A stretch of DNA of 64,000 bases from Candidatus Latescibacterota bacterium (GTDB taxonomy: Bacteria > Latescibacterota > UBA2968 > GCA-2709665), in the NCBI GenBank assembly GCA_965203805.1, contig OZ241917.1:416001-480000 (forward strand), in the 5' to 3' direction. The notes under the pieces are model-generated. The model worked only from the letters and a program-made list of their open reading frames with translations, was not told the origin of the DNA and did no database searches. A program made the translations under genes and the position numbers. Positions 14,302 to 62,310 of this stretch are shown here, piece by piece (positions within the stretch are counted from its first letter, which is position 1; every line of letters begins with the position of its first letter).

Positions 14302-17112
14302 ATGGATGGAGGCGCACACTTTTATCGTTGTGATCTTCAGGTACATTCCCCCCGAGATACAAATTGGACTGGCCGTGAACGCGTAACAGAGCCGGATCGA
14401 TATGCCTACGCGACTAATCTTGTACATGCTTGCCGCGAACGTGGGCTACAAGCAATTGCTATAACAGATCATCATGACATGTTGTTTCTCAGATTCGTTC
14501 GCTCAGCCGCTGCCGAAGAGAAAGACCAGGAGGGCAACGAGTTGTTGCCAGAGAAACGCTTGGTGGTATTTCCTGGAATGGAGTTGACTCTGGGAGTTCC
14601 TTGCCAGGCATTGGTTATATTTGACGCCAAATTTCCAGACGATTTATTCTCGTTGGCCATGAACGCTCTAGCCATTACACCAAGTGCCGAAAATGACGCG
14701 AAGATAGCCGACGTGCAACGACTAAATGGTATACAGTCGCTAGGTGATTTAAAACAGAAACTCGACGAGCACGATTTCATTCGCGGTCGCTACATCGTAT
14801 TTCCGAATGTCGGTAAGGACGGTCAGTTCTCCCTGATTCGGAAAGGGCTTGCAGGAAAGTACGTCGAAATGCCGTGTGTTGGTGGATACGTAGACGGAAA
14901 AATCGCCGACTTAGGGAAGGGTACGCGAAACATCATTGACGGAAAGGCTAGGGAGTGGGGACATAAGCGGATTGCGTGTTTTCAAACTTCAGACAGTCGT
15001 AGTGAAGATCACACGACGCTCGGAGAATCTAGCACGTGGATCAAGTGGGCCGTCCCCACCGCTGAGGCGCTACGCCAAGCGTGTCTAGGCCAGGAGTCTA
15101 GGATTTCCCAAGAATTGCCCCCAATGCCAGCAGTTGTGATAAAGAGTATCTCGGCGAGTAACAGTTCATTCCTTGGTCCGTTTGACCTAGAACTGAATCC
15201 GCAGTACAACTGTCTAATTGGCGGTCGAGGGACTGGGAAGTCCACGATCCTTGAATACTTACGCTGGGGGTTGTGCGATCAACCGCCATCAGATTTAGAG
15301 GAGAGCGATACGCCGAATTATGAGGCACGGAGGCGGCGTCTAATCGAACACACGCTAAAACCTATGGACGCAACGGTGGATGTGCAGTTTGAGGTTAATG
15401 GCGTACAGCACATCGTCCGACGAACGAGTGAAAACGGTCACCTTCTGATCAAGATCGGCACTGAAGAAATGAAACCTTGCACTGAAGAGGAAGTTCGCAG
15501 GCTACTACCCATACAGGCCTATAGTCAAAAGCAACTGAGTGACGTAAGTGTCAGGGTCGATGAGTTGTCACGTTTTGTCAGAGCCCCGATTCGCGCAGAA
15601 CTTGATAAGATTGAACAGCGTCTAGAGGAGGGCGCCGACAGGGTAAAGGAAATCTACGCGTTGGTGCGACGATATCGTGCGCTTTCCCGAACGATCCAGG
15701 AACGTCAAATTGCTGAAAGTTCGTTGTCGGAGCAAGCAGATGCGCTACGAGCGGGACTATCAGGCCTGTCGGAAGAGGATCGTGCGCTGCTCGATATGGG
15801 TGGTTCATATTCGAATGCGGAACACACCGTCGAGTCTTGGAAGAGTGGTGTTATCCAGTTGGCCGAAGGTGCCGACGCGTTGCGATCGAGGTTAGATGTC
15901 CATTTGGTTGAGCATGAAGCGGTGCCAGCAAGTCCGGAAGGCGACATTCTGAGGGACGCCCACGGGGAATATAGAACGCTGCTCACTGATGCAAAGTTAG
16001 CTCTTGATGGCATCGTCGAGAAGGCACGATCAATTATCGATGCTCCACAATCGGACGGTGAAGGTCCTTGGCGGAAATGGGTTGAGAAATTGGCCGCTTT
16101 TCGTGAGGCATACCAATTGGCTGTTAGTCGATCGACGACTCATCGTGACAAAATGGAGCAACTGACAGAGATCGAGGAACGACTGCGGGCGCATCAACAA
16201 GAGACGTTGCGCTTAGAAAAAGAAAAAAAGGCGATTGCGAGGGTGGAGGAGGACTATAATAACGCGCGCGATGAATGGAAGGAGCTGATTGGCAAGCGCG
16301 ATGATTTACTTGATGTGCAATGTTCGAATCTAACAACGAACTCTGGAGGCACCATTCGTGCCCACGTTAGCCGTTACGCCGATCCCGAGGATTTCGTAAC
16401 GCGACTAAAGCAGGCAGTCAGTGGATCGCGTGTACAAGGTAGCAAAATCGAGCAACTCGGAGCGGCTATCTCAGAAGTAGAATCAGCAAGTGACGCACCC
16501 AAAATCCACCAGGCGATCTTGGCGGACCTTGAGAAACTGGCGGAATTCGATGCAGAGCGAGAGGGAATTGAGAATCGGCCAGATGCCTCAGCTCTGACAC
16601 GTATCGGATTGACTAAATCAAACTTGGACGGGATCTGTAGAGGTCTTGGGCTAGACGATTGGTTGACTCTGTCACTTACGCCAATCACTAGTGAGCCAGT
16701 TTTCGAATATCGGGCGCGCGAGAAGGATTACATTCCGTTCCGAAACGCTTCGGCTGGTCAGCAGGCTACGGCACTACTCACAACGCTACTTAATCAGTCA
16801 GGTCCTCCATTGATTATTGATCAGCCGGAGGAGGATCTGGACAACCCAATTATCCTGGAGATCGTTGAACACGTTTGGGTTGCAAAAAAGAAACGTCAGC
16901 TAATTTTCGCGAGCCACAATGCTAATTTAGTGGTGAATGGTGACGCCGAGCTTGTTGCTTGGTGTGGCCACAGAACGTCTGGCGACCAGTCACGGGGGAC
17001 GGTTGCTGGCGAGGGTGCGATCGATGTAGACGACACCAGAAATGCTATCAAGGAAATAATGGAAGGGGGGGAGGCAGCATTTAACCTCAGAAGGGCCAAA
17101 TATGGGTTCTGA
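14302..17112 (+). CDS. PHP domain + coiled-coil ABC/AAA ATPase (TrlF/Ppl-like defence protein)
   Basis: DLQVHSP, AITDHH, PGMEL; GGRGTGKS, SAGQ, IIDQPEEDLDN, SHN. Confidence 0.82.
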   Translation: MDGGAHFYRCDLQVHSPRDTNWTGRERVTEPDRYAYATNLVHACRERGLQAIAITDHHDMLFLRFVRSAAAEEKDQEGNELLPEKRLVVFPGMELTLGVPCQALVIFDAKFPDDLFSLAMNALAITPSAENDAKIADVQRLNGIQSLGDLKQKLDEHDFIRGRYIVFPNVGKDGQFSLIRKGLAGKYVEMPCVGGYVDGKIADLGKGTRNIIDGKAREWGHKRIACFQTSDSRSEDHTTLGESSTWIKWAVPTAEALRQACLGQESRISQELPPMPAVVIKSISASNSSFLGPFDLELNPQYNCLIGGRGTGKSTILEYLRWGLCDQPPSDLEESDTPNYEARRRRLIEHTLKPMDATVDVQFEVNGVQHIVRRTSENGHLLIKIGTEEMKPCTEEEVRRLLPIQAYSQKQLSDVSVRVDELSRFVRAPIRAELDKIEQRLEEGADRVKEIYALVRRYRALSRTIQERQIAESSLSEQADALRAGLSGLSEEDRALLDMGGSYSNAEHTVESWKSGVIQLAEGADALRSRLDVHLVEHEAVPASPEGDILRDAHGEYRTLLTDAKLALDGIVEKARSIIDAPQSDGEGPWRKWVEKLAAFREAYQLAVSRSTTHRDKMEQLTEIEERLRAHQQETLRLEKEKKAIARVEEDYNNARDEWKELIGKRDDLLDVQCSNLTTNSGGTIRAHVSRYADPEDFVTRLKQAVSGSRVQGSKIEQLGAAISEVESASDAPKIHQAILADLEKLAEFDAEREGIENRPDASALTRIGLTKSNLDGICRGLGLDDWLTLSLTPITSEPVFEYRAREKDYIPFRNASAGQQATALLTTLLNQSGPPLIIDQPEEDLDNPIILEIVEHVWVAKKKRQLIFASHNANLVVNGDAELVAWCGHRTSGDQSRGTVAGEGAIDVDDTRNAIKEIMEGGEAAFNLRRAKYGF

Positions 17113-17499
17113 GTTCGCACCTATGACCCAGCGCGCCCGTGAGTCACTTAGCCTGACTAATTCATGAAACTGAACGGAACAGTGTTTTTGGAAGCAAAAA
17201 GTGATCTATAGAAGGGGAAATAGTCAAATGACGTGTTGGTGACGGGATAATGCGTAATTTTGGGTGGTCTGTCAGCATCGAGGGGTGTCGAGTTCTTTGA
17301 TTTGTGGATGGAAAGGACAGACGGATGCCTTGGTCTTACTTTTGGCGATGAGAAAGGGACGGCGGGGCCTGCGTGAAGCGTCTGCGTTATGGAACTGCCT
17401 TTGCCAAATTGCATAGGATGGTGCCATAGAGGTGTTTCAAGGGAAATGAGGTTGGCAAATGGAGTTTGATTTTGGTTTTGAGTTCGGACACTCTCCCGG

Positions 17500-17520
17500 C
17501 CTGTCTGCCGGACAGGCAGG
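17500..17520. repeat. 21-nt palindromic insert CCTGTCTGCCGGACAGGCAGG
   Basis: Removal restores KVAGRV. Confidence 0.85.
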
Positions 17521-17726
17521 CGACTTTGAGGATGCGATTCTGAATGGTATTAAACTGCGCGTGCGTCCATTGGGTGGTCCGGAGTCCTTTTTCGGTAAGG
17601 GTGTGCATCAGGACATAAGCGGCACTATGCAGTAAGAGACGGAAGTGATTGGCTTCGAAGGTGTGGCAGGAGGTACGATCGGAATGGAGGAAGGTTTTGT
17701 GATTCTTGATGAAGTTTTCCATCCTG

Positions 17727-17747
17727 CCTGCCTGGCCGGCAGACAGG
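17727..17747. repeat. 21-nt palindromic insert CCTGCCTGGCCGGCAGACAGG
   Basis: Removal restores the YCARGRMEN motif. Confidence 0.88.
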
Positions 17748-18583
17748 CCGCGCGCACAATAGACGGTTTTGTAGAGGAATGAGGGCTGGCTACTCTTCAG
17801 GTTGGTGACGACAAAGCGTGTATTGGCTTGTCCGGAAGCGGTGATTTCAGCTTTGTAGATGATGCGTCTTGGCAGGGCCCAGGAATCTGCCTGGTAAGCG
17901 AAACTGGTAAATCGCTGCACAGGCTGTCCGGTCTCCCGATACTGTGCCTTTGCCTGCTCGATCAGCGCGTGTCCCCGTTGTGCAAGCCTGGCATTGCCCG
18001 TCTGTCCCAGCACGAAATACACCTCTTGCACGTCGCAGAAGTCGTGGACCTCGGGACAGGAAAAATGGCCGTCGCCACGCAAAAAGAGTCGCACGTGCGG
18101 CCACGCCTCGCGAAGGCGTTTCACCAGTCGCTTGAGAACGGTGACAATCTGTTTGCCGGTAGGACGGGCGCCCGGACGCAAAAGCGTCGTGATCAGTCTT
18201 CCTGTCTGCCCTTCATAGATATGCAAGGGACAGTAACAGCGTTCACCATAATAGCCATTGAACATCGCCAACTGTTGACAGCCGTAAACCTCGTCGTCGG
18301 TGTCATCGATATCCAGAACGACCGCGTTGGGAGGCCGCTTGTAGGACGCGATAAACCCGTCCACAAGGGCCTCGGCAATACGATATAAGTCCCGGCGACG
18401 AATGCCGTTTTCCAAACGACTCATCGTGGGTTGGCTGGCCAACGGCGTCCCTGATATCGGCAACCGACCACAGGCCGCCTTGAACGCGGGGTCAAAGCGC
18501 AGCAAATCGCAATCGTTCGCATCTTCATACGCGCACGCGATCTGAAACACACGCTGGCTGATCAGATCCGACATCGTGTGATC

Positions 18584-18616
18584 CCTGCCTGCGCCAAGTG
18601 CAGCGCGGCAGGCAGG
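18584..18616. repeat. 33-nt palindromic insert CCTGCCTGC-15 nt-GCAGGCAGG
   Basis: Removal restores HPSYVDHT. Confidence 0.88.
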
Positions 18617-18716
18617 CACATAACTGGGATGCCGACGGTCCGGTAACGCCTCGACGATCCGAGACAGAATGCCGATCTTGGACTCTACCTCTCGAAGCAA
18701 CATCGACCCGATATCG

Positions 18717-18735
18717 CCTGCCTGCAGCAGGCAGG
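18717..18735. repeat. 19-nt palindromic insert CCTGCCTGCAGCAGGCAGG
   Basis: Removal restores the frame and GGVLTSDIG. Confidence 0.88.
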
Positions 18736-18976
18736 CTGGTGAGCACACCGCCGTCGAAGACGGCTTCCACCTGCTTGCCAGAAACACTTGCGAACGGAAC
18801 TGTGAGTTGACTATCTTGACCTTTCACGGTAGTTTCCTCCTGTTTCATTGCGTTATGGTTATTCGCCTAACCATAATATAATACAATGACTTGGGTAAGG
18901 AAACTACCTTTTTTGTGAATAATTGGGGTCAGACTGACGATACCTATCCATATTCAAAATAGCCGGAGAAAAAAAG

Positions 18977-21900
18977 ATGCATTCCACAGAATCTTTGCAA
19001 TCGACAGTCAAACCTGGTGTAACCGTCGATGGCCCTTTTGTTCCCGAACCTATTGAAGTACTGGCAGTCGTTCCCTTTGGAACATCCTTGAAAGTGATCG
19101 GTAAGGGAACCAAGACTGGCTTGACCCACGATCCTGTTTTGAGTCGAGAGCAGCTATCCAAACTGAACATCTCTGGCGAGAACGAGCCTCTTGACGGGAA
19201 TGCAGCGTTATTCAGGATCGGCATTGAGGCCCATCGGCTTGGTTTGGCCTATGAATATGATCCTTTTTTTTCGCTTTCCATTGCAAGGATAGATCCACTG
19301 CCGCATCAGCTTGAAGCCGTATACGATTATTTTCTAAGACTACCCCGCATTCGGTTCTTGCTTGCTGATGATCCCGGAGCAGGTAAGACCATTATGGCCG
19401 GACTGCTAATCAAGGAGCTGAGAGCAAGGGGCTTGGTAAAGCGCGTTCTGATCGTGGCGCCCGCTAACCTGACGTTTCAGTGGCAGCGAGAACTCAGAGA
19501 TAAATTTCGGGAGTCTTTCGATATTATCAACAGTATGGTACTCCGTACGAACTACGGCCAGAATCCCTGGCAAGAGCGAGACCAGGCTATTACGTCCGTT
19601 TCCTGGGTGTCGCGTATCGAAGATGCTCGTGAGAGTCTACAGCGATCCCGATGGGACCTGATTATTGTAGATGAAGCCCACAAGATGAGTGCCTATGCAC
19701 ACGATCGTAAGACGCTCGCATATCAGCTAGGTGAATCCCTTTCGGAGATGACCGATCATTTTCTATTAATGACAGCAACTCCTCATAAAGGTGACCCCGA
19801 AAACTTCTGTTTGTTTCTCTCGCTTTTAGATCGGGATGTGTATGGTAATGTCGAGAGCCTGAACCACGCAATGTCTCAGAACGAGGCCCCTTTCTATCTT
19901 CGACGCACCAAAGAGGCCTTGGTGTCTTTTCCAGATCCAGATACTGGCGTTGTACATAAGCTGTTTACTAACCGCGAAGTGCATACTGCAGCGTTTGATC
20001 TGGATGGTGAGGAACTCGATTTCTATGATGATTTAACACGGTATGTCGAAGATCAGTCTATTCTGGCTTCAGCCGATAATTCTGCAAGGGGTAGAGCCCT
20101 TGGTTTTACAATGGCAATGCTCCAGCGCCGGATGGCGTCGACGATCTATGCGGTTCGCCGAAGTTTAGAGCGTATGCGGGCTCGGCGTGAAAAGATTCTG
20201 GCCGATCCTGAAGGGTATCGACAGGAACAGATCGAACGAAGGTTTCCGGACGATTATGATGACCTGACCGAAGAAGAACAGCATCAGATTCTGACCGATT
20301 TAGAGGAAGTGGTTGCGTCAGTTGATCCGAGTGCGCTTCGGGAAGAGATTACCCATTTGACGCGATTGATCGGTTCAGCAAGGAAGTTGGAGCACCGTGA
20401 GATCGAATCCAAGTTGGCCAATTTGAAAGACCTGTTGAATAAACGTGGCTTTTTGCGTGATCCGAATAAAAAGCTCCTGGTATTTACTGAACATAAGGAT
20501 TCTCTGGACTATCTGGCTGGAGATGGGAAGGACGGGCGACCATTTGGTAAGCTACGCGCGTGGGGGTTGACGATTACTCAGATTCATGGCGGTATGAAGA
20601 TCGGGGATCGAGATACGCGAGGGACCCGCATCTATGCAGAACGGGAATTTCGAGAATCTGCCCAAATACTAGTGGCAACAGAAGCAGCAGGAGAAGGCAT
20701 CAATCTTCAGTTTTGTAATCAGATGGTCAATTACGACATCCCGTGGAATCCTGTACGATTGGAGCAACGCGTTGGGCGTATTCATCGATATGGTCAGCAA
20801 CACGACTGTTTCATTTTTAACTTTGTTGCCAGAAATACCCGGGAAGGTCGCGTTCTTCAGAAGCTGATGGACCGGCTGCGTGAGATTCGGAGTGAGTTGG
20901 GGACAGATCAGGTATTTGATGTGATTGGCGAAGTATTACCTTCCAATTTGCTAGATCGGCTATTTCGAGATATGTATGCCCGAAGAACAGATGAGCACGC
21001 AGTAGCGCACCGCATTGTTCAGGAAGTGGACTTGAATCGGTTTAAATCCATTACCGAGTCCGCTCTTGAAGGTCTAGCCAAGAAGGAACTAAATCTGTCT
21101 GCCGTTCTTGGCAAATCCGCCGAGGCCAAGGAAAGACGACTGGTGCCTGAGGTGATCGAGCAATTTTTCGTGGAAGCAGGTCCAGTAGCTGGTATTCATC
21201 CAAAGGCCACGTCTCACTGCGGCCAAATATATCGCGTAGGAAAAATACCCAGAACGCTACTTCAAAAAGGGCAGGAAATAGAGGGGCGATTTGGAAGGTT
21301 GGGGAGAGATTATGCGCGTATCGGATTTGACAAGGAGTTGCTAAAAGATCACCCCACATTAGAATGGGTAACCCCTGGCCATCCCCTTTTTGAAGTTGTC
21401 CGAGAGGATGTACTTGAACGCGTGCAAGATCATCTAAACCGGGGGGCAGTGTTTTGGGATCTAAACATACAGGCTGCTGGGATTCTGGACGTTTTTGCTG
21501 CATCGATTAAGGATGGTCTTGGTAACACGCTGCATAGACGTATTTTCGTGGTTGAAACAGATCCCGATGGAGAGATGCAACTCCGACAACCTACCTATTT
21601 CTTGGATATCACGCCAAAGCCTGCCGATGAAACTTCGGCACAGGATCCGAATTTCAAACCACCGGATCGGGTGCTGGCTGAGCGGTTTCTGTTTGAAACG
21701 GCATTACAACCCTGGCTAAATGAATCTGCCGAGCAGAGAGAGAAGGAAGTTGGCATAATTGCCCACCATGTAGGCATCAGCTTGAATGCTTTGATAGATC
21801 GGCAGCAAATCCAGCTTGCAGACTATCTTAATCGTCAGATTGACGGCCAAACTGTTACCGGATTGGATGGTTTGATTGCCCAAGCCGAACAGCATCTGGA

Positions 21901-22438
21901 CGATCTCAACAACCGATTGGAGAACAGAAATAAGGAATTGGAAATGGAGCGCCACTGTACCATCGGAGACATTGCACATCTCGGTCGTGCGATAGTAGTT
22001 CCACATCCCGAACGTCAGACTACAAAATTAGCGCCTATGGTACGGGATGAAAAAATCGAGAAAATAGCGGTACATATGGCCAGGAATTACGAAGAAGCGC
22101 GCGGATGTGTGGTCGAAAGTGTTGAAGCTGACAACCGGGGATTTGATTTGATTTCTCGACGCCCACATCCGGAAGATTCCGACACATTTACAGAAGTAAG
22201 ATTTATTGAAGTAAAGGGGAGGGCCGGAGTTGGGGAGATTTTCTTGAGTACGAATGAATACAGAACCGCAGAACGACTCAAAGACGATTATTGGCTCTAT
22301 ACTGTGTTTAACTGCATAACCGAACCTGACTTACATATTTTTAGAGATCCTGGATCCTTGGATTGGAAACCCATCACGAAAATAGAACATTATCGGATCA
22401 ACCCCAACGCAGTGTTTAGAAACCAGAGCCATGTCTGA
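18977..22438 (+). CDS. SNF2-family helicase with C-terminal DUF3883 (NOV C-like) nuclease domain
   Basis: LLADDPGAGKT, IVDEAH, TATPH, QRVGRIHR; GFDLIS...FIEVKGR. Confidence 0.9.
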   Translation: MHSTESLQSTVKPGVTVDGPFVPEPIEVLAVVPFGTSLKVIGKGTKTGLTHDPVLSREQLSKLNISGENEPLDGNAALFRIGIEAHRLGLAYEYDPFFSLSIARIDPLPHQLEAVYDYFLRLPRIRFLLADDPGAGKTIMAGLLIKELRARGLVKRVLIVAPANLTFQWQRELRDKFRESFDIINSMVLRTNYGQNPWQERDQAITSVSWVSRIEDARESLQRSRWDLIIVDEAHKMSAYAHDRKTLAYQLGESLSEMTDHFLLMTATPHKGDPENFCLFLSLLDRDVYGNVESLNHAMSQNEAPFYLRRTKEALVSFPDPDTGVVHKLFTNREVHTAAFDLDGEELDFYDDLTRYVEDQSILASADNSARGRALGFTMAMLQRRMASTIYAVRRSLERMRARREKILADPEGYRQEQIERRFPDDYDDLTEEEQHQILTDLEEVVASVDPSALREEITHLTRLIGSARKLEHREIESKLANLKDLLNKRGFLRDPNKKLLVFTEHKDSLDYLAGDGKDGRPFGKLRAWGLTITQIHGGMKIGDRDTRGTRIYAEREFRESAQILVATEAAGEGINLQFCNQMVNYDIPWNPVRLEQRVGRIHRYGQQHDCFIFNFVARNTREGRVLQKLMDRLREIRSELGTDQVFDVIGEVLPSNLLDRLFRDMYARRTDEHAVAHRIVQEVDLNRFKSITESALEGLAKKELNLSAVLGKSAEAKERRLVPEVIEQFFVEAGPVAGIHPKATSHCGQIYRVGKIPRTLLQKGQEIEGRFGRLGRDYARIGFDKELLKDHPTLEWVTPGHPLFEVVREDVLERVQDHLNRGAVFWDLNIQAAGILDVFAASIKDGLGNTLHRRIFVVETDPDGEMQLRQPTYFLDITPKPADETSAQDPNFKPPDRVLAERFLFETALQPWLNESAEQREKEVGIIAHHVGISLNALIDRQQIQLADYLNRQIDGQTVTGLDGLIAQAEQHLDDLNNRLENRNKELEMERHCTIGDIAHLGRAIVVPHPERQTTKLAPMVRDEKIEKIAVHMARNYEEARGCVVESVEADNRGFDLISRRPHPEDSDTFTEVRFIEVKGRAGVGEIFLSTNEYRTAERLKDDYWLYTVFNCITEPDLHIFRDPGSLDWKPITKIEHYRINPNAVFRNQSHV

Positions 22439-60931: not shown

Positions 60932-62310
60932 ATGGCCAACCGGAGGTTCGAGATGTATCAGTATCGCCAGGTATTGACGCGTATGCGGTTGGGCGATTCG
61001 GATCGTGCGATCGCCCGTTCCGGGTTGATGGGTCGGCGGAAGGCCGGCTCGCTTCGTGAAGTGGCAGGCCGTGAGGGATGGCTGGAGGCTTCCAACGTGT
61101 TGCCCGATGATGCCACGCTGGTGCAGGTGGTTCAGGTTCCAACCTCGCGGCCTCAGTCGGCCTCGTCGGTTTTGCCCTACCAGGACAAGGTGACAGCTTG
61201 GTGGCGTGAGGGTATCCGGGGTACCGTCATCCACCAGGCGTTGGTGGACACCTACGGCTATGCCGGCTCGTATGCTTCCATCCGTCGTTTTCTCCAGCAG
61301 CTCAAAGACGCTCATCCCGACGTCACCACCGTGTTGGACTTCGATCCGGGCGACGTGGCGCAGGTGGACTTCGGGCGGGGTCCCACGATAGAGGACGTCT
61401 TCACCCACCAGACCATCGCGACGTGGATCTTCGTGATGGTACTGGCCTGGTCTCGCCACCAGACAGAAGCGCCTTCGAGTTCTTCGGCGGCGTCCCGGCA
61501 CGCGTGGTGATCGACAACCCCAAAAACGCCATCACCAGGGCCTGCTACCACGATCCGGAGGTGCAGCGCGCCTACGGCGAGTGCGCCTGCCTGCGTCCCT
61601 CGGACAGGCAGGCCGAAGGCTATGGCTTCACCATCTCCCCGTGCCCCGTGCGAGACCCGAAGAAGAAGGGGTGCGTGGAGGCGGCCGTGAAGTATGTCAA
61701 GCGCAGCTTTGTTGCCCTGCGCCAGTTCCGTGACATCAGCGATGCCAACCGGCAGTTGCAGGACTGGATCCTGGGGGTGGCCGGTAACCGCATTCACGGC
61801 ACCACCCACGAACGACCCCTGACACGCTTTGCACAGACCGAGCGCGAGTTCCTCAAGCCGTTACCCGCCATTCCACCTGAGCAGGCGGCCTGGGCCAAGG
61901 TGAAGGTTCACGGCGACTGCCACGTCCAGTTCGAGAAGTGTCGATACTCCGTGCCCTATGCCCTGGTGCGCCAACAGCTCTGGTTGCGGGCCAGCCCAAA
62001 AACCGTGAAGATCTACCAGAACCACAACATGGTGGCCGTTCATCCCCGTAAAAACACACCCGGTGCACGCGCGACCGTTACCGAACATCTGCCGCCCGAG
62101 GCGCGCGCTTTCCTGATGCGCGATCCACAATGGTGCCTCAAACAGGCACAGAGTATCGGTCCTTCCTGCCACCACCTCATAAAGACCCTCTTCTCCGATC
62201 GCGTGCTGGACAACCTCCGCGCGGCGCAGGGCATCATCCGACTTTCCGAACGCTACGGCGCAAGGCGCCTTGAGGCCGCCTGCGACCGCGCCCTGGCCTA
62301 TGACAACCCC
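60932..62310 (+). pseudogene. IS21-family IstA transposase with deletion/frameshift; no istB follows
   Basis: PG..AQVDFG, FVM.L..SR, FFGGVP..V.DN.K, KG.VE..VKYV, R.HGTT, YSVP. Confidence 0.88.
61586..61612. repeat. 27-nt palindromic insert CCTGCCTGCGTCCCTCGGACAGGCAGG
   Basis: Removal restores YGECAEGYGF. Confidence 0.85.

Follow-up and report, generated by a model that had tools for sequence, protein, structure and literature searches.

How does a single transposase gene come to carry four short palindromes that share their outer arms, and what are these palindromes? The gene lies in a 64,000-nucleotide stretch (positions 416001-480000) of a Candidatus Latescibacterota genome assembled as a single contig of 5,865,457 bp with 59% G+C. 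This whole stretch is called the window below, and coordinates refer to it unless they are given as genome positions. The palindromes, which have the form CCTGYCTG...CAGRCAGG and are here termed CCTG hairpins, are confirmed to be precise insertions of a mobile hairpin family that leave no target duplication. They probably represent ultra-small nonautonomous transposons, similar to the repetitive extragenic palindromes (REPs) of many bacteria and the small dispersed repeats (SDRs) of cyanobacteria, and moved in trans as folded single strands.

Hairpin insertions in an IS1380-type element

The pattern CCTGYCTG-N1-25-CAGRCAGG has six matches in the window, one of which is an overlapping start at 17723 that falls on the same site as insert 2, versus none in each of 100 dinucleotide shuffles. 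The inserts and their host insertion sequence (IS) are as follows.

17500..17520, insert 1, 21 nt, T.G wobble form on the + strand; found by pattern match, unique to the window IS1380 copy
17727..17747, insert 2, 21 nt, in frame, adding 7 aa; pattern match, alignment and BLASTP
18584..18616, insert 3, 33 nt, in frame, adding 11 aa; BLAST high-scoring segment pairs stop exactly at the element, also alignment and BLASTP
18717..18735, insert 4, 19 nt, near-perfect palindrome that frameshifts the transposase near its N terminus
61586..61612, insert 5, 27 nt, in frame, in an IS21-type gene; pattern match
17152..18928, - strand, host IS1380-family element, ends approximate (CCTGAC...TTGGGG)
17387-18787, - strand, IS1380-type transposase open reading frame (ORF) with inserts 1-4, PF13701
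18525-18848, - strand, N-terminal 107-aa piece of the transposase in a different frame

A MAFFT alignment of all eight IS1380 copies of the genome revealed precise empty sites in paralogs for all four inserts, with zero target duplication and with junctions ambiguous by just 1-3 nt (GG, GCC, C, and GC). The site of insert 1 is empty in the seven other copies (...CTCCCGG^CGAC...). Insert 2 is carried by four of the eight, namely those in the window and at 1.369, 4.185, and 4.028 Mb, and its site is empty in the copies at 2767k, 2880k, 358k, and 1739k. Insert 3 exists only in the window and 1.369-Mb copies, and insert 4 is common to the window and 4.185-Mb copies, with a remnant in the 1.369-Mb copy. 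Each of the seven paralogs lacks one or more inserts, and the presence pattern is nested and reflects how closely the copies resemble one another (98%, 90%, and 88% identity). The site of insert 5 also has an empty paralogous counterpart, at genome 5441113-5441348.

At the protein level, BLASTP against the insert-free paralog leaves three clean gaps of 11, 7, and 7 residues (PACRAALGAGR, GLSAGQA, and ACLSGRQ), and taking out these peptides restores the motifs SYVDH, YCARGRMEN, and KVAG. The window transposase scores 449 bits against PF13701, compared with 508 bits for the insert-free paralog, and its match begins at profile position 21 rather than 3, in line with the 19-mer frameshift. An initial annotation, made from the letters of the window alone, had proposed that four palindromes of 21, 21, 33, and 19 nt interrupt the transposase, that their removal restores family motifs, that there is no clear target duplication, that all five inserts follow a G and four precede a C in gene orientation, which makes the boundaries slightly ambiguous, and that the 19-mer shifts the frame. 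The pattern matches, the eight-copy alignment, the BLASTP comparison, and the N-terminal piece in the other frame bear out these statements. Its remark that no further copy occurs in the window also held, even when up to one arm mismatch was allowed.

The inserts, the frameshifting one included, are found in IS copies at different loci, which suggests that the IS moved on afterward, presumably in trans, or that conversion spread them. In the copy at 1.369 Mb (genome 1369844-1369877), the 3' arms of inserts 3 and 4 delimit a deletion of 119 nt. Because the deletion ends in these shared arms, the tiny repeats promote deletions inside their host. Matching 4-bp flanks, which the hairpins lack, are present at the six of the seven other IS1380 copies whose flanks were resolved, all but that at 1739k (CTAG, CTAA, CTAT, TTAA, TTAA, and GTAA). 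The flanks of the window copy are mismatched, TTAG (17148-17151) versus TCAG (18929-18932), which could reflect a point mutation or recombination of one copy with another.

A genome-wide family built on a common basal stem

A search of the genome for the same arms, with at most one mismatch and a total length of up to 40 nt, yielded 262 elements of 19-37 nt, the commonest lengths being 33 (84 copies), 27 (44), 31 (39), 30 (28), 36 (14), and 19 nt (13). When all subfamilies are merged, they constitute the most abundant dispersed repeat of the genome, in which the largest single 14-mer families have 74 and ~65 copies, the latter being CRISPR-like. Four 14-mers at ~65 copies each, one of which ends GATTGAAAC, resemble a single CRISPR repeat.

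The elements fall into ~20 subfamilies with common outer arms and different interiors. A basal stem of 7-9 bp, CCTGYCTG(C)/(G)CAGRCAGG, is conserved. In most elements it is followed by a small bulge and a variable inner stem-loop; in several major subfamilies the bulge measures 2-3 nt and the inner stem 4-6 bp, and the sequence of this stem varies by subfamily while its two sides stay complementary, that is, compensated. With DNA parameters, the minimum free energy on at least one strand lies under the shuffle mean for 18 of the 19 subfamilies with at least three copies (-4.6 to -14.5 versus -2.0 to -7.6 kcal/mol), the exception being a 23-mer subfamily (-2.5/-2.7 versus -3.3 kcal/mol). Most of the predicted folds are a single hairpin on the basal arms, and four leave the outermost bases unused. 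In 76 of the 262 elements a T stands opposite a G at stem position 5 on one strand, and hence a C opposite an A on the other, an asymmetry that makes sense if the element acts as a folded single strand. The spacing between the arms ranges from 1 to ~20 nt, which would be easier to reconcile with an enzyme that reads a folded stem than with one that reads a duplex site. At the gathering threshold, no Rfam family matches the hairpins in the window and six further loci; group II introns are the only matches there.

Lengths divisible by three are found in 180 of the 262 elements. The initial annotation had attributed the predominance of in-frame inserts in the window to selection on the IS, but the same bias is present in noncoding contexts (119 of 169 copies), and therefore it reflects the length spectrum of the family, not selection on the transposase.

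Insertion sites, ends, and nesting

At least one paralogous locus that lacks exactly the element was found for 74 of the 262 copies. The earlier suggestion of a minimal mobile hairpin is supported. Collapsing related sites left 24 independent filled/empty pairs. Target duplication was observed at none of them. The base at position -1 is G in 20, that at +1 is C in 18, and that at +2 is G in 13; farther out (-2 to -6 and +3 to +6) the flanks show no conservation, and there is no GTAG or CGTC tag. Given a genomic G frequency of ~0.295, the excess of G at -1 appears far beyond chance. Insertions also exist at sites other than G^C, namely A^C, A^T, G^T, G^A, and C^C, and because these sites remove the ambiguity of the ends, the mobile unit can be defined as exactly CCTG...CAGG.

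At least seven elements are inserted into another element of the family, with the uninterrupted host element present elsewhere in the genome. Two insertions specific to the source genome adjoin its genes for REP-associated tyrosine transposases (RAYTs), which are described below. A 33-mer located 7 nt past the stop codon of RAYT-1 is absent from a 91%-identical ortholog in genome G001. A 27-mer adds the peptide PACALHADR to a fusion of a methylase with RAYT-2; it was inserted into the loop of a host palindrome, GCGGGCG^TCCCGCCCGC, and the site is empty in all four orthologs (G008, G011, and G016).

These ends bear on the idea that there is no transposition of the unit at all, and that gene conversion among repeats or break repair from a template spreads the copies, or that they are host motifs under selection, for instance for protein binding or RNA structure. 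Conversion would be possible for the 220 of 262 elements that lie in repeated DNA, many elements are found between ordinary genes, as REPs are, and arm-to-arm recombination does occur. Nevertheless, identical sharp ends are seen in nonhomologous contexts (two IS1380 families, IS21, a DUF772 IS, a group II intron, RAYT loci, and other hairpins); templated repair would be expected to give variable end points; and selection for a host function leaves the frameshifting and nested copies unexplained. We therefore consider this alternative very improbable.

Genomic location of the elements

The 220 elements in repeated DNA contrast with 43 of 400 random positions, in agreement with the earlier proposal that the hairpins accumulate in mobile DNA. 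Judged by codon-position G+C periodicity, 169 of the 262 have noncoding-like flanks on both sides, and only 21 have coding-like flanks on both sides, versus 43% of random positions, which marks a depletion in ordinary genes. The impression that the family is concentrated in a transposase gene is thus correct within the window but not genome-wide. No host harbors more elements than a CT/GA-rich palindromic intergenic repeat, GACCTCTCCCC...GGGGAGAGG, which has 74 copies; 78 elements form one context cluster, concentrated at 3.24-3.47 Mb. Further hosts are two IS1380-type families, IS21, a DUF772 IS, group II introns (RF02003 and RF00029), and one unnamed five-copy repeat. The group II intron at genome 688500-691500 (L031; RF02003 and RF00029) carries three hairpins, one of them within the D1-D4 match, and other copies of the intron carry none. 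The 230-kb region at 3.24-3.47 Mb holds 69 of the 262 hairpins, many in intergenic spacers. Because most flanks are noncoding-like, the hosts are repeats, and the genes bracketed by hairpins are nearly all ordinary ones, the elements are REP-like in location and accumulate in dispensable and mobile DNA.

Counts on the leading and lagging strands, by subfamily, are 15:9, 12:11, 13:10, 9:4, and 5:5, and a skew in replication orientation is confined to the 31-mer subfamily, whose copies move along with their host repeat. The 31-mers point one way up to ~3.33 Mb, are reversed at 3.337-3.457 Mb, and then turn back, which suggests a 120-kb inversion or a polarity tied to gene direction.

The initial annotation had also considered an anti-transposon scarring mechanism or an excisable switch. 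The variety of hosts might be taken as the mark of such a scarring system, or of an RNA-level excisable switch or intron-like element, since at least five kinds of large mobile element carry inserts, and the 19-mer frameshifts the transposase yet is common to three IS copies at different loci. The analysis yielded no evidence for either function, and we regard both as extremely improbable, because noncoding repeats and the spacers of ordinary genes hold most copies, the reading frame stays open through three of the four IS1380 inserts, and the Rfam search gave no match to the hairpins.

As for the surroundings of the IS1380 copy in the window, it is flanked by a 936-aa ORF (14302-17112, + strand) and a 1153-aa helicase-like ORF (18977-22438, + strand), which could be part of a defense locus.

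Distribution across Latescibacterota

Every record found to contain the exact 33-mer of the commonest subfamily is titled Candidatus Latescibacterota (14 stretches). The phylum was sampled with 140 genomes, in which the copy number ranges from 0 to 281 and is patchy. At least 66 copies are present in eight genomes of the family to which the window belongs and in G024, a genome of a second family with 120 copies. The rest of the window's family have 0-23 copies, and the other families, apart from G024, have 0-10, some of which are clear members. G016 and G024 possess subfamilies and nested forms of their own.

Search for the mobilizing enzyme

A search with PF01797 detected two Y1 genes in the source genome. 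RAYT-1, a protein of 201 aa, scores 104 bits with the NCBIfam model "REP-associated tyrosine transposase" (cut-off 80), and RAYT-2 is a domain fused in frame within the ORF of a DUF1156 methylase.

genome 4532312-4535533 (L001), RAYT-1 locus, an array of ~300-nt repeat units
genome 4546470-4549700 (L002), methylase-RAYT-2 fusion, open frame of 1252 aa, DUF1156/D12-class methylase

The array around RAYT-1 is a low-copy, local REPtron: of the 21 genomic copies of its palindrome, 18 map to 4.5-4.6 Mb, and only one of the 262 hairpins lies within 1 kb of this REP. The array units contain inverted copies of CGAGGGCA(TCCC/GGGA)TGCCCTCG, some with GTAG in front. The fusion is kept in G008, G011 (two copies), and G016, as open frames of 1203-1441 aa (L019, L021, and L025). 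The frame in G016 also holds a second, RAYT-1-like domain, which has small palindromes of its own at its borders, GCGGGCGTCCCGCCCGC on the 5' side and GCGGACGGGACGTCCGC on the 3' side.

The initial annotation had suggested that an HUH/RAYT-like or other enzyme places the hairpins, and the elements might indeed be REPs that are cut and pasted by RAYT-1 or the methylase-fused RAYT-2. Besides the score of RAYT-1, which also matches PF01797, this idea could draw on the hairpins that abut both RAYT frames, 7 nt past the RAYT-1 stop and 4 nt before the RAYT-2 homology, given that a hairpin lies inside or within 10 nt of only 113 of 3893 gene-like frames. Moreover, among 41 kin genomes, whose counts are not independent, at least 16 hairpins are found in 12 of the 18 with a RAYT-like hit versus 1 of the 23 without, and eight of the nine genomes with at least 66 copies have such a hit. 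Both abutting hairpins are, however, specific to the source genome, with empty orthologous sites, and seven loci of RAYT-1 or RAYT-2 orthologs in relatives (L017-L022 and L025) have no adjoining CCTG hairpin, IS1380-borne ones aside. In five genomes, the palindrome that flanks the RAYT-1 ortholog is another one, conserved and of the GAGGGCA type, CGAGGGCAGG(G)ATGCCCTCG, and RAYT-3, a third lineage found in relatives, is flanked by a GTAG-tagged palindrome, GCAAACTGWCAGTTTGC / GTAG-GCAAACTG. The hairpins themselves lack a GTAG or CGTC tag, and the closed genome G024 has 120 copies, many of them identical, with no RAYT-like hit and no intact Y1 gene. The REPtron test thus failed for all three RAYT lineages, each flanked by other palindromes, and the hairpins were rejected as the cognate REP of any of them. 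This speaks against the proposed placing enzyme, and mobilization by RAYT-1 or RAYT-2 is unlikely.

Another candidate emerged from the hairpin-dense region. The genome encodes five small DUF559 proteins, which belong to the Vsr-like PD-(D/E)XK nucleases.

genome 3336187-3336648 (- strand), 3343615, 5380885, 5383110, and 5395140, five small DUF559 genes, endonuclease-like, PDB 3HRL

Such a nuclease might be the partner of the hairpins if, for example, it nicked the T.G-containing stem and the element spread by repair or homing. The first of the five genes, which encodes a 153-aa protein matching PDB 3HRL ("endonuclease-like protein"), is situated between two identical 33-mers at the center of the densest hairpin region. 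In genus g1, strong hits are found in all nine genomes with at least 16 hairpins versus none of the six with seven or fewer, and at seven of 20 loci from genomes with at least 16 hairpins a hairpin lies within ~1 kb (seven of 25 DUF559 loci overall). Two of the five genes are in the hairpin-dense region, where they are bracketed by the CT/GA-rich units. The 153-aa gene is bracketed first by these GACCTCTCCCC...GGGGAGAGG units, which themselves carry hairpins, and its adjacency to hairpins therefore looks indirect, because these were inserted into the units bracketing the gene. The other 13 of the 20 loci are free of hairpins, including both loci of G015, a genome with four DUF559 open frames and 236 hairpins. 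The same DUF559 subfamily occurs in genomes with only 0-3 hairpins (G020, G022, G027, and G034), and G024 gives zero DUF559 hits in spite of its 120 hairpins. A role of DUF559 is thus distinctly improbable, and the presence tables for both RAYT and DUF559 are weak evidence because selfish features co-occur in the repeat-rich genomes of one clade.

Ssn-type nucleases were also tried as partners and rejected: a search of the genome with PF01541 (GIY-YIG) gave two hits, in frames of 629 and 678 aa, and no small Ssn-type gene, and the NTS/SRM motif of these enzymes is unrelated to the hairpins. According to Pfam, nine of the ten genes bracketed by two hairpins encode ordinary enzymes, transporters, or peptidases (GNAT, alanine-racemase-like, TPP enzyme, MacB/FtsX, oxidoreductase, NMT1, FAA hydrolase, TIM-barrel, and M78 peptidase) and one a DUF772 transposase; no candidate enzyme was found among the ten. 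In the densest region, 3.327-3.347 Mb, 10 of the 24 ORFs of at least 150 aa were scanned, revealing secreted repeat proteins, DUF559, and six ORFs without a Pfam match.

Proposed mechanism

The precise empty sites, the strand-asymmetric stems, and the variable arm spacing can be accommodated by the following scheme, which probably describes the family: an enzyme encoded elsewhere acts in trans on a REP/SDR-like, ultra-small, nonautonomous hairpin transposon, which moves as a single strand in its folded form. This enzyme would recognize the folded element, cut both ends at the base of the stem, and rejoin the flanks. Cleavage at either end of the element and at the target, as well as resealing of the donor, would then typically involve GpC steps. 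The chemistry would follow the conservative "peel-and-paste" logic of HUH enzymes of the IS200/IS605/RAYT type. As the genome shows, copies also hitchhike with a multiplying host repeat, and recombination between the short arms can remove the DNA that separates two copies.

Several observations weigh against this scheme. Searches for RAYT, Ssn, and DUF559 genes and among bracketed genes tied no enzyme to the elements; RAYT-1 and RAYT-3 have other palindromes at their sides, and G024 prospers in hairpins with no intact Y1 gene. IS608-type targets are 4-5 nt long and guide-defined, and the specificity seen here, merely 1-2 nt on each side, is weaker. No replication-strand bias was detected in most subfamilies, unlike in IS200/IS605, although hitchhiking copies blur this test. 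The direction of the events, insertion rather than precise excision, is suggested by nesting and outgroups. Contigs from four of 20 listed sequencing runs, none of the 20 recorded as RNA, on a 19-kb stretch with two hairpins in unique contexts break at the 33-mer and have thin cover at the 27-mer in the runs other than the source, and these data show polymorphism neither way.

It is also possible, though we hold this more tentatively, that the hairpins form a new class: a minimal single-hairpin transposon whose enzyme is neither RAYT nor Ssn, and which is mostly a hyperparasite of other selfish or structured DNA, that is, IS elements, group II introns, REP-like and BoxC-like repeats, and other hairpins of its own kind. 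The basal stem would then be maintained throughout a candidate phylum, and the interior would be free to change. If true, an enzyme of a new class might also explain the cyanobacterial SDRs.

Whether the mover belongs to such a class or, as we favor, follows the HUH-like logic of a REP/SDR-like transposon, the question is testable by association over related closed genomes, in which the copy number varies from 0 to 281, and with simple biochemical assays on oligonucleotides. Bacteria commonly carry very small palindromic repeats, but it has rarely been shown directly that one hairpin of 19-37 nt is itself the mobile unit. The source genome provides dozens of clean filled/empty pairs, a defined G^C target with defined ends, nested events, and recent lineage-specific insertions. 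To our knowledge, no enzyme has been assigned to the repeat families that lack a GTAG or CGTC tag, the cyanobacterial SDRs included. The inserts also matter for annotation, as proteins gain 7-11 residues from them or are frameshifted, assemblies break at them at the k-mer scale, and they promote deletions between copies.

Comparison with known systems

Among transposable elements, those of the IS200/IS605 family resemble the CCTG hairpins in their lack of target duplication, their hairpin ends, and their precise joints. The hairpins differ in that they encode no transposase, consist of one hairpin rather than two subterminal ones, use a target of 1-2 nt rather than a guide-defined one of 4-5 nt, and show no lagging-strand bias. 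Miniature inverted-repeat transposable elements have terminal inverted repeats with target duplications and exceed 50-100 nt, Rickettsia palindromic elements are ~100-150 nt long, and the GC clusters of yeast mitochondria are organellar. All three are small palindromic selfish DNAs able to sit in frame in genes, as the CCTG hairpins are, but none has their sequence, and the lack of target duplication at all 24 sites distinguishes the hairpins from miniature elements mobilized by DDE enzymes.

The REP/REPIN-RAYT systems are closer. REPs are GC-rich palindromes of 20-40 nt with hundreds of copies, mostly extragenic and sometimes in genes (Nunvar 2010, PMC2817692; Bertels & Rainey 2011, PMC3116915; Di Nocera 2013, PMC3733652), all of which applies to the CCTG hairpins. 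REPs are, moreover, thought to move as folded single strands, and the source genome has RAYT genes. On the other hand, the CCTG unit is a single hairpin rather than a REPIN doublet, is untagged, and is not the palindrome that flanks RAYT genes, and filled/empty and nested insertions are directly documented for it. The NTS/SRM repeats, associated with Ssn GIY-YIG single-strand nucleases and having the motif CGTCATTCCCGCG...GGGAAT (Chenal 2025, PMC11893778), likewise have hundreds of hairpin copies that are patchy among relatives, and their partner was found via flanking genes. Their motif is unrelated, however, and insertion is not described for Ssn repeats. A literature search, which did not extend to supplements, for the hairpin motif or for repeats and transposases of Latescibacteria gave nothing relevant, and the 8-mer of the arm matched primers only.

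The closest known system is the SDR family of Nostocaceae. SDRs, described in 2008 by Elhai et al., are reportedly hairpin-forming dispersed repeats of 21-27 nt, mobile as judged by comparison of related loci, and also found nested in repeats; their families reportedly share structure but not sequence. The Latescibacterota hairpins share with them a size under 40 nt, insertion seen by comparison of related loci, and nesting. They differ in phylum and sequence, and in having many subfamilies on one basal stem. We know of no enzyme that acts on SDRs. SDR5 inserts into the short palindrome HIP1, and SDRs are reported in Nostocaceae only (PMC5861425). Most REPs belong to GTAG- or CGTC-tagged superfamilies, and untagged families, those of Elhai included, are listed as unexplained (Di Nocera 2013, PMC3733652). 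Because it has no such tag, the CCTG family belongs with these untagged REP-like families as they are delimited there. The CCTG hairpins are thus a family of the REP/SDR kind, newly documented in an uncultured phylum.

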